DNA from: an uncultured Chloroflexia bacterium
Lineage (GTDB): Bacteria > Chloroflexota > Chloroflexia > QHBQ01 > JADMIH01
Assembly: GCA_963797095.1 (NCBI GenBank)
Contig: CAWCNY010000003.1
Coordinates: 864,001 to 928,000, forward strand
Length of the DNA stretch: 64,000 nucleotides
Reading direction: 5' to 3'
How positions within the stretch are numbered: position 1 is the stretch's first letter; every line of letters starts with the position of its first letter. Positions 31,154-32,818 of the stretch are shown in pieces. The notes beneath the pieces are model-generated. The model was not told where the DNA came from and made no database searches. It was given only the letters and a program-made list of their open reading frames with translations. A program made the translations under genes and the position numbers.

Positions 31154-32818
31154 CTATTGGACCAACCGTCTCAGGCAGGCGAAGAAATAGGCCATCTTGT
31201 TCGACAGACCGGATGCGCCGTGCTTGCCCTGGGCCTCCCTGGTGCTCCTCTTGGCGTTGTACATCATCTCAACGAACTGGTGTTCATCCAACGAGGATGA
31301 GCGCCACAGGCGAAGCGCCTGACCCGCGTTCGCGATCACATGCTGCTGGTCGCCTAGCTCGTATGAGAAGTCGGTTATCACCTGGGCGATGTAGTTGGAA
31401 TGCTCGCTGTGAGATCCGTTGCCGTTCGCTCCTTTTGAGAGGGAGGGCTGACTCAAATCATCTTCCTCATCCTTTTCTGGATGCTTTGCTTCTACTTCGT
31501 GTTCACTGAGCGTCGTAGGGGCCTCTAAACGCTTTGTCATGGGGCGCTGTGACGCCTCAGTTGCAGGGCCAGCAAACTGCGTGTCGCCTGGGTCTGTATA
31601 CTGCGCGGCATTGGGAGGTATATACCCTGTGTCACGCACCCCTCTATACTTCATGTCATCCTCTGCTCTATACTCCGTGACATTGGGGCCACTATACGGG
31701 CTGTCACGGGGGGTCATATACTCTATGTCACCCCCTATCTTATGAGCTTTTCCATTACGCCCATTTGTTGCGTGTGTGGCGCGTAGTTCCTCTTTAGTGG
31801 AGACCAGATCCGCTTGTCTGTCGTGTCTTTGCCTGGCGGCAAGGCTTCCCCTGCGCGGCCTGCGCTCCACTCTTGAGGCTAACCTTGGATCGTCGTTTGT
31901 GGGGCCGGTTGGATCCTCCGCAGGGTCTTCGGTGCGGGTTGCCTGCGGTGCGGCGGGGGGTTGGAGCAGCTTGCCGATCTCTTCGAGGAGAGGACTGAAG
32001 TCGTAGGCGTTCGAGTCCTGGCCGCCGTCCGCCTTGGTGCGGTGGACCAGCCGAAGGTAATCGCGTTCCACCAGGCTTGCCTTGAGGCGGTGCAGGTAGG
32101 CGGGCGTGTAGCCTGTGAGGGCGGCCATGCGCATGATGCTGGGGTAGGGGAGGGCGGTGTCCCACTGGTAGGAGAAGATGTAGGCCACGAACCACACCTG
32201 CTGGGGGGTCATGCCGAGGCCCGCGCTACAGGTAAAGAGGGCGCGAGGCACCGCGGCCACGCCATAGCGCGTGATCACCCTGCCATAGCGCGCCACGAAG
32301 CTGGTGTCGCGCTCCGACCTCTCCAGCTCGTTCAGGGATGCCCAGGTGTCCTCGGTCTGGTCGGTGGCTCCCGCCTGTGATGCGTGCTCCCTGGTAACGG
32401 GCACGCCTATAGCGGGGTTGCTCATGCCTGCGCTTTGCAGGTCTTTGCGCTGCTCGATGATGCACGCTTCGAGATGGCCGAACAGGGGCGCGAAATCGTA
32501 TGCGTTGGATTCCTGCCCGCGCTCCTGCGATACGCGAGGGTAGACCAGGAGGTAGCCCATCTCGCGTAGCTCGTCGCTGTAGCGCTGCAACTGGCGCTTG
32601 CTCATGCCTGAGCAGCGGGCCATTACGCCGAGGCTTGGGTAGGGAAGGTCCTCGTCCCACTTGTGAGATAGGATGTAGGAGATGAACCATATGTGCTGAG
32701 CATACAGGTCGAGCTTGCTGCCAAAGTGATAGAGCGCCGAGGGGAGGGCCGCGATCCCGTGCTGTAGGATCACCCTCCCGAAGCGGGCAGCGAAGCTGGA
32801 TCTTCCTGAATTTGGCAT
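31154..32818 (-). CDS. Putative replication initiator with two tandem DnaD-N-like winged-helix domains
   Basis: Internal duplication of a ~110-aa domain ('G.AA.P.AL', 'LPYPS...MA', 'SNAYDF.PL'), resembling the DnaD N-domain; C-terminal 'NKMAYFFACL'; AGGAGG RBS; next to parAB. Confidence 0.72.
   Translation of the reverse strand: MPNSGRSSFAARFGRVILQHGIAALPSALYHFGSKLDLYAQHIWFISYILSHKWDEDLPYPSLGVMARCSGMSKRQLQRYSDELREMGYLLVYPRVSQERGQESNAYDFAPLFGHLEACIIEQRKDLQSAGMSNPAIGVPVTREHASQAGATDQTEDTWASLNELERSERDTSFVARYGRVITRYGVAAVPRALFTCSAGLGMTPQQVWFVAYIFSYQWDTALPYPSIMRMAALTGYTPAYLHRLKASLVERDYLRLVHRTKADGGQDSNAYDFSPLLEEIGKLLQPPAAPQATRTEDPAEDPTGPTNDDPRLASRVERRPRRGSLAARQRHDRQADLVSTKEELRATHATNGRNGKAHKIGGDIEYMTPRDSPYSGPNVTEYRAEDDMKYRGVRDTGYIPPNAAQYTDPGDTQFAGPATEASQRPMTKRLEAPTTLSEHEVEAKHPEKDEEDDLSQPSLSKGANGNGSHSEHSNYIAQVITDFSYELGDQQHVIANAGQALRLWRSSSLDEHQFVEMMYNAKRSTREAQGKHGASGLSNKMAYFFACLRRLVQ
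31597..31730. repeat. Six iteron-like motifs TATAC-N4-TGTCA with exact 24-bp period inside the rep-like gene
   Basis: TATAC at 31597, 31621, 31645, 31669, 31693, 31717; TGTCA/TGACA at 31630, 31654, 31678, 31702, 31726. Confidence 0.8.

Follow-up and report, generated by a model that had tools for sequence, protein, structure and literature searches.

In-gene iteron-like repeats constrained as DNA in a putative replication initiator family of uncultured Chloroflexota

A 64-kb stretch of DNA from an uncultured Chloroflexia bacterium (hereafter the window; it lies on contig C3, 1.15 Mb, of the 6.0-Mb host genome G000) contains a gene, here called rep, for a putative replication initiator, with an array of 24-nucleotide (nt) direct repeats in its middle part. 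As established by the comparative evidence below, these repeats are almost certainly constrained as DNA and not as peptide. They are probably iterons, that is, binding sites of the protein encoded by the same gene, and would constitute the core of an origin situated inside the initiator gene. The proposed initiator binding and oriV role are suggested by the architecture of the locus, the analogy with the RepA_N system of pSK41 and with lambda O, a local dip toward A+T, and minima of the GC (guanine plus cytosine) skew nearby. The gene and its repeats are the following, in window coordinates.

31154-32818, minus strand: rep, the putative initiator gene, 554 amino acids (aa), with two winged-helix domains, a disordered linker and a helical C-terminal domain.
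31568-31735, minus strand: seven in-frame units of 24 nt (8 codons), encoding aa 362-417, with the core TGACA-N4-GTATA; proposed iterons.
31544-31567, minus strand: a degenerate unit (aa 418-425) with an unrecognisable core.
31526-31539, minus strand: the eighth copy, TGACA-N4-GTTTA, 191 nt (8x24-1) after unit 1, in another frame, encoding the peptide PMTKRL.
31502-31515, minus strand: a weak ninth copy in the same shifted register as the eighth (d=215, score 3.6, 9e-4 per nt), weak on its own.

On the coding (minus) strand the unit reads xxx xxT GAC Axx xxG TAT Axx xxx. A preliminary description of the window had reported TATAC on the plus strand at 31597, 31621, 31645, 31669, 31693 and 31717, and these positions, with their exact 24-nt spacing, are confirmed; the degenerate copies that it placed near 31526 and 31573 also exist, being the copy at 31526-31539 and the core of unit 7 at 31573-31586, and its statement that the spacers are not conserved is borne out. 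The count of TATAC in the window is near expectation (48 matches vs. 47.06), so that only the clustering is unusual. For TATACNNNNTGTCA with at most one mismatch, seven matches are found in the window, six of them between 31526 and 31730, while shuffled sequences give a mean of 1.64 and a maximum of 5, and none of 100 shuffles reaches seven. The exact TGACA-N4-GTATA occurs eight times in the 6.0-Mb genome, four times within the array. A positional matrix built from the seven units recovers the eighth copy, and among 12.04 million genome positions it yields 36 matches of at least 15 bits, eight of which are in the array. Stronger copies are seen at the place of the ninth in the orthologues L005 and L006. 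The region 30500-32800 gives no output in Tandem Repeats Finder, as the units are alike only in two 5-nt blocks and are unrelated or diverged outside them.

The conserved bases largely fall on positions where the encoded residues vary. GAC is preceded by a T that closes the codons for G, R, N, D, R and N, and followed by an A that opens those for I, S, T, M and T. Likewise, a G closes the codon before TAT in 7/7 units (E, P, E, K, G, Q and Q; the preliminary description listed the first six), and an A opens the codon after it (M, S, R, R, I and T), Arg being AGA and Ser, AGT or AGC. Tyr was said to be always TAT, and this holds in 6/6 units, compared to 5/21 in the rest of the gene (Fisher p=0.0016) and a genomic TAT share of 36.6%. 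When synonymous codons were redrawn with the residues kept, none of 20000 redraws matched the observed third-position uniformity of the window array; for 16 homologous arrays the result was 0/3000 in 13 cases and 1, 3 and 34 of 3000 in the remaining three. By itself, this test cannot exclude common descent of the units. Third positions were also compared in two orthologue pairs, with the core defined in one array only, as a definition based on both arrays (1/40 vs. 32/88) was rejected as circular: the differing positions were 4/24 in core columns vs. 17/40 elsewhere (p=0.053) in one pair, and 1/24 vs. 11/40 (p=0.023) in the other. The orthologues L005 and L006 do not vary synonymously in the repeat: Tyr is encoded by TAT in 4/5 and 5/5 cases, and Asp by GAC in 7/7 and 8/8. 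The free synonymous variation that the preliminary description named as a refutation of its claim is thus not what these orthologues exhibit. Together with the out-of-frame copies, the redraws and orthologue third positions uphold the earlier claim that conservation acts at the DNA level, synonymous positions included.

Homologues of rep were found in 31 of the 61 related genomes searched, a count that includes three unpublished genomes; the loci from the latter (L016, L027, L030) were excluded from the array analyses of period, register and flanks. The array set consists of 29 distinct homologues from metagenome-assembled genomes of uncultured Chloroflexia/Chloroflexota. In all 29 the 24-nt array is located at the same place, in the linker, with a motif that differs for each; the number of units varies from 5 to 14, and the strongest self-similarity lag equals 24 or 48 nt in 43/43 genes, duplicates included. 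Thus, a direct-repeat array with a conserved core, as expected of an iteron-type theta origin, is present both in the window (seven in-frame and one or two shifted units) and in 29/29 homologues.

The step in register is likewise common. The eighth copy of the window array falls into another frame because its distance from unit 1 is one nucleotide short of eight periods. In hand-cut loci, the best match to the locus' own matrix within 150 nt downstream was found at d mod 24 = 23 in 15 of 16 cases, while the 150 nt upstream yield nothing comparable. An automatic search for out-of-phase copies in the 29 distinct genes, with the threshold set at approximately one false hit per 50 kb, detected 24 genes whose linker contains copies out of codon phase, the step being 47, 71 or 95 nt in 19 of them, 19 nt in two, 46 nt in two, and alternating 23/25 nt in one. 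The latter gene, L013 (G031:C145), contains at gene positions 1243-1405 an almost identical 24-mer whose copies follow one another at 23 and 25 nt in turn. Its translation switches between PSQVSGPP and LSGERPSP from copy to copy, which gives a 16-aa peptide period. Ten copies in one frame and four in another are present in L060. Since the register step is common and the motif differs by lineage, the motif has changed in parallel on both sides of the step; a common reader or homogenisation at the DNA level can produce such parallel change, selection on the peptide cannot.

The array is followed by two further elements.

31455-31512, minus strand: an A+T-rich, A-rich stretch, candidate unwinding element, with 0.40-0.45 GC in 20-nt windows.
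31449-31462, minus strand: degenerate GATGATTTGAGTCA, a copy of the family box GATGATTCGAATCA.

Averaged over the 29 genes, GC content decreases to 0.38-0.43 at 35-70 nt past the start of the last copy, compared to the gene mean of 0.595; hence, judged by composition only, an A+T-rich element adjacent to the repeats, another feature of iteron-type theta origins, is present. The core of the family box, GATTCGAATC, is a perfect 10-bp palindrome containing two GANTC sites and located after the A+T dip. It is exact in 25/29 genes, its synonymous positions being invariant though the proteins are only about 40% identical. In L005 and L006 it is replaced by GACTCGAGTC, a symmetric double change that keeps the palindrome, and among the 29 genes examined the box is absent from L013. 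Occurrences of GATTCGAATC elsewhere in G000 are uninformative: of seven sites, five are copies of one repeated element, one belongs to a paralogue, and one is unrelated. The five identical elements (C2:593359, 788133, 947884 and 1275690; C3:587554) carry GATTCGAATC in a transposase-like frame unrelated to rep and are probably an insertion sequence.

The domains of the encoded protein were delineated in an AlphaFold model built from a 19-sequence alignment (mean predicted local distance difference test, pLDDT, 58.7).

32429-32755, minus strand: winged-helix domain 1, aa 22-130, AlphaFold2 pLDDT mostly 70-90.
31958-32299, minus strand: winged-helix domain 2, aa 174-287, an internal duplicate of domain 1.
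31160-31396, minus strand: C-terminal four-helix domain, aa 475-553, pLDDT about 90.

The linker (aa 288-470) has pLDDT below 50, and the array, coding for aa 362-433, lies between the domains; as it encodes a disordered linker, the latter is free to follow constraints on the DNA. Pfam HTH_36 matches the protein at 3.1e-9, and the PHROG annotations "replication initiation protein" and "replication initiation O-like" match both N-terminal halves at 3.4e-8 to 1.8e-5, the O-like matches being weak (6.4e-6 to 8e-3). The best structural matches of domain 1 (VIA-align) are DnaD N-terminal domains, 8ojj_A with Z 10.8 and 2vn2_A with Z 10.6 (root-mean-square deviation, rmsd, 2.8 over 96 residues), followed by rows with Z of at most 8.8, and domain 2 matches RctB domain 1 (Z 7.7) and the N-terminus of primosome DnaB (Z 7.5). 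In relatives, DnaD_N is present twice, including the position of domain 2. The C-terminal domain matches the DnaD-domain protein 2i5u_A with Z 7.0 and rmsd 2.2 over 69 residues, which is within the chance range for helical bundles; Atlas matches to RepB_C and Bac_RepA_C, at scores of 0.86-0.89, are leads only. No NCBIfam family covers the protein, a PDB sequence search returned nothing up to E=1, and Foldseek with the model found no PDB match at E<=0.001.

The 155 relatives present in databases all come from metagenome bins of Chloroflexia/Chloroflexota and are named hypothetical, helix-turn-helix (HTH) or "AraC-like" proteins. No full-length relative was found among 72,556 plasmid records, which gave only single winged-helix matches at 25-38% identity, and no relative among 50,697 phage records. 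Several longer relatives of about 680-760 aa (P0032, P0046, P0081, P0086, P0096) end in DnaA_N, i.e., DnaA domain I (aa 604-665 in P0032, 2.1e-13); judged by domain content, this ending suggests direct recruitment of the helicase or other DnaA partners. Similarity of the motifs follows that of the winged helices: in a Mantel test on 22 genes (L001, L012, L013, L014, L015, L018 and L038 were left out because of short C-terminal domains or missing landmarks), rho was 0.39 for domain 1 (0/2000 permutations), 0.25 for domain 2 (11/2000) and 0.15 for the C-terminal domain (65/2000). G000 itself encodes a paralogue of 575 aa on the same contig (C3:69,688-71,415; L002 901-2628, minus strand), whose array, at the same place and also with shifted copies, has the motif TAGAACA-N4-TTTACA and is accompanied by an exact GATTCGAATC box.

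These features are consistent with the following mechanism. The tandem winged helices would contact the two 5-nt blocks of the bipartite core, spaced by 9 nt centre to centre, in successive major grooves, and several initiator molecules assembled on the array may bend or wrap the DNA, thereby opening the neighbouring A+T-rich stretch. The C-terminal domain of Rep could then recruit the host helicase or primase. The linker peptide would be a passenger, its sequence dictated by the DNA sites, and divergence of motifs between paralogues may keep co-resident replicons compatible.

The skew data agree with an origin in this region in part. On C3 the cumulative GC-skew minimum is at 883,325, within a flat trough at 882-897 kb that is followed by a steady rise from 897 kb, and the array is located at 895,526-895,735. 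In the related genome G025, the minimum and rep are 17 kb apart on C1 (151,885 and 168,813-170,369, respectively) and 10 kb apart on C10 (155,871 and 144,364-145,951). Gene orientation around rep, judged by eye, demonstrates no clear pattern.

A separate feature of the region is a gene at 34019-38131 (minus strand) for a secreted-looking protein of 1370 aa with long Pro/Thr-rich linkers and a C-terminal pAdhesive_15 domain; local GC skew in this gene is up to 0.75, disturbing the skew curves near rep.

Several points weigh against the array being an iteron-type origin. The function of iterons is assigned by analogy. The skew minima, found 10-17 kb from rep on 3/3 long contigs tested, are distant and the signals weak; moreover, several G000 contigs have extra turning points, the arm of positive skew on C3 is only about 140 kb long, the paralogue at C3:70 kb lies in flat skew, and rep of G025:C10 is split into two open reading frames (ORFs). 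A spacing of 24 nt does not correspond to an integral number of helical turns, in contrast to that of many iteron origins. At the thresholds used, no motif copies are seen upstream of rep or on the other strand, and hence there is no sign of an inverted-repeat operator such as many iteron plasmids have; at the threshold of the automatic search, 5 of 29 genes lack an out-of-phase copy. The palindrome of the window is imperfect (GATTTGAGTC at 31449-31462). The redraws for arrays of other genomes used the codon usage of G000, and the Mantel correlation is confounded by shared descent, the C-terminal domain being weakly correlated as well. DnaA boxes near the repeats, which are common, though not universal, in iteron origins, do not exceed expectation: the DnaA-box-like site ATATCCACA of the preliminary description is present at 31080-31088, but one-mismatch boxes number 7 in the window vs. 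7.95 expected. In that description, the iteron-like DNA repeats hidden in the initiator gene are strongly supported, while the DnaA-box-like site is at chance level.

The genes downstream of rep are relevant to an alternative in which the sites are bound as DNA, yet are not the origin. On one strand the order is rep, parA, a P22_AR_N/ORF6C gene, parB.

29876-30976, minus strand: parA, with an N-terminal MerR/excisionase-type HTH (AAA_31 8.3e-47, HTH_17 8.5e-13; ParA-family models).
28884-29870, minus strand: a gene with P22_AR_N and ORF6C domains (antirepressor-like), between parA and parB.
27676-28836, minus strand: parB (ParB_N 1.6e-20, HTH_ParB 3.7e-12).
28837-28906, strand not assigned: about nine copies of the 7-nt tandem repeat ACTCGTC, directly upstream of parB and overlapping the end of the P22_AR_N gene.

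Direct-repeat arrays also act as plasmid centromeres and control sites, and accordingly the rep array might serve copy-number control (handcuffing), autoregulation as an operator, or partition as a centromere, with the origin elsewhere, e.g., in the rep-parA spacer (30977-31153); in the last case, the reader could be ParB, the ParA HTH or the P22_AR_N protein. We consider this unlikely. It agrees with the position of parA and parB after rep, with the lowest GC content near the gene (0.465) being that of the rep-parA spacer, and with the lack of a canonical parS, as no palindrome match with at most three mismatches is found in the window. On the other side, the array is inside rep in every homologue, and no Walker-A ParA motif was found downstream in five homologue loci with at least 1464 nt of sequence there (L005, L007, L008, L017, L018), so that the array goes with rep and not with par. 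The ACTCGTC array upstream of parB, separate from that in rep, is already a candidate centromere or par operator. The correlation of motif similarity with the Rep winged helices and the A+T-rich stretch and conserved box adjoining the array inside the gene also favour an origin, and so does the fact that the in-gene repeats of pSK41 and lambda are the origin.

The P22_AR_N/ORF6C gene is an unusual member of a partition operon. The rep/par module is flanked by genes for a PIN-domain toxin (27054-27494, plus strand) and a Phd/YefM-like antitoxin (33486-33719, minus strand), and by an IS66 transposase gene (24105-25559, plus strand), a set typical of plasmid-derived regions. The dnaA gene is on another contig.

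Of the explanations that deny the array a binding function, a neutral minisatellite, made uniform by unequal crossing-over or gene conversion and tolerated in a dispensable linker, is very unlikely. The number of units does differ between close relatives (nine in L018, eight in L020), and the units of L013 are almost identical, as such a process would have it. But homogenisation would keep whole units alike, whereas conservation in the window, as in most homologues, is confined to two short blocks, with saturated spacers between them; in addition, position, period, register step, A+T dip and palindrome are all retained across proteins that are about 40% identical.

Even less credible is a repeat selected as peptide, that is, a disordered linker with short linear motifs such as D-x-x-Y, the likeness of the DNA being a remnant of recent tandem duplication. 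In its favour, the unit spans 8 codons exactly, no residues in the window array are better conserved than D and Y/F, and G-D-x-Q-Y is retained in L005 and L006. Still, in 24/29 genes the same motif is found in other frames, where it encodes unrelated peptides, the conserved bases occupy third and first positions of codons for variable residues while the spacers are randomised, the choice of codons is far more uniform than the residues demand, and the region is predicted to be disordered.

One more element beside rep is a candidate small RNA, encoded opposite to it.

32839-32963, plus strand: candidate small RNA, with a promoter at 32839-32867 and a transcript at about 32874-32963, two hairpins and a U-run.

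A terminator-like site accompanies the promoter, which scores 11/12 with TG. In 14 of the 26 loci with enough upstream sequence we observe a TTGACA-N17/18-TGCTACAAT promoter and a T-run 89-96 nt past the predicted start; the consensus fold has 16 pairs, six with compensatory changes. The first hairpin holds a CCUCC stretch. From its sequence and placement, a copy-control countertranscript is a possible function of this RNA. That the repeats act at the mRNA level, where an RNA-binding protein or a small RNA would recognise them and govern rep translation, is highly unlikely: the conserved small RNA candidate beside rep would fit this, but the two Rfam matches up to E=1 score 17-21 bits, well below the gathering scores of 40-43, the candidate has no evident complementarity to the array (no formal test made), and the encoded protein is modelled as a double winged-helix DNA binder.

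Returning to the iterons, a further-reaching, and rather doubtful, possibility is that the unannotated rep family is the missing initiator of large plasmid- or chromid-type replicons in this lineage of Chloroflexota, with iterons, register step, unwinding stretch and palindrome forming a complete origin in the gene's own linker. The iteron array would then be locked to the 8-codon period and followed by the A-rich unwinding stretch, the ancestral 1-nt step of register would determine how the last iterons are phased against the unwinding element, and GATTCGAATC with its two GANTC sites might be read by a host factor or methylase timing initiation. If so, the gene alone, perhaps with the small RNA, would be a portable minimal replicon, and divergence of motifs among up to dozens of paralogues per genome, an incompatibility code. 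In a recent study of Ktedonobacteria, Pfam revealed no canonical Rep on chromid-like secondary replicons, and parA was located close to the origin predicted from skew (PMC13289182).

In a wider context, the array is a case of dual coding: the same bases are codons and proposed protein-binding sites, and in most family members the same site is read in two frames. Such dual-frame reading may be used as a test, requiring nothing but sequence, that separates DNA-level from peptide-level repeats. The initiator family and its origin architecture represent a candidate replication system in uncultured Chloroflexota, a phylum with few genetic tools, and, should the gene be a self-contained replicon, as are repC and pSK41 rep, a starting point for vectors in these bacteria. 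With the lineage-specific motifs, one could also follow in a natural setting how initiators diversify in specificity and incompatibility.

Among known systems, similar features are observed in several, and we begin with Rep_3. In initiators of this family (F RepE, R6K pi, pPS10 RepA), the two winged helices of a monomer read a bipartite iteron, and here, too, two winged helices and a bipartite core are present. Rep_3 plasmids have iteron arrays beside an AT-rich unwinding element, with the iterons outside rep, whereas in our case the repeats are inside rep and no inverted-repeat operator is seen; neither Rep nor the relatives examined have a Pfam match to Rep_3. Iterons of pMP7017 are likewise placed downstream of repB, not inside it (PMC8313286).

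The repABC type of alphaproteobacterial replicons resembles our system in having an in-gene origin (a candidate one in our case) with partition genes nearby. There, oriV of repC lies within the initiator coding sequence beside an A+T-rich region, with no iterons, and partition genes belong to the same module (PMC3155836). In contrast, iteron-like repeats are found here, and the gene order is rep-parA-x-parB. The RP-C domain of Pfam is absent in P0001, and only one relative, P0012, has it, at 23.9 bits, under the cut-off of 24.4.

With O of lambda and lambdoid phages the likeness is in the proposed in-gene iterons followed by an A+T-rich tract, as well as in the weak O-like PHROG matches. Ori-lambda is situated in the middle of gene O, iterons first and the AT-rich tract next, the iteron being a 19-bp imperfect inverted repeat in four to six copies (PMC7466680). 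Inverted-repeat iterons of this family are bound by a dimer. Our units, on the contrary, are direct and bipartite, with TGACA and GTATA not mutually complementary, the context is that of partition genes and not of a phage, and no Pfam match to Phage_rep_O was found in Rep or the relatives examined.

The closest parallel in layout is with pSK41 RepA_N. The winged helix of the pSK41 Rep N-terminal domain (NTD) binds four Rep boxes located centrally within rep, the central domain is a dispensable linker encoded by the origin, the NTD and C-terminal domain (CTD) are DnaD-like, and rep is controlled by an antisense RNA; in pPR9, a natural chimera, a pfam13730 HTH takes the place of RepA_N (PMC5703833). 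We likewise see a DnaD-NTD-like fold, an array in the linker-coding centre of rep, where the linker is disordered and the origin role is proposed, and a small RNA candidate beside the gene. Unlike pSK41, the winged helix is tandemly duplicated, the array has 5-14 units at a strict 24-nt period instead of four boxes, the register step puts some copies in a second frame, and there is the conserved GATTCGAATC box. The RepA_N theta plasmids are those of Firmicutes, whereas the host phylum here is Chloroflexota, and some contigs exceed 0.36-1.1 Mb. Scanning P0001, P0002, P0012, P0032 and P0087 with hmmscan against Pfam up to E=1 gave no RepA_N (PF06970).

A literature search, subscription journals not covered, yielded no paper on the rep family or on in-gene iterons in Chloroflexota. 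In its proposed mode of action the family resembles pSK41 RepA_N and lambda O, without belonging to either. This kind of arrangement is known; new are the family and its host, the tandem arrangement of winged helices, a period held strictly to 8 codons together with a register step that is conserved, and a palindrome that is conserved as well.

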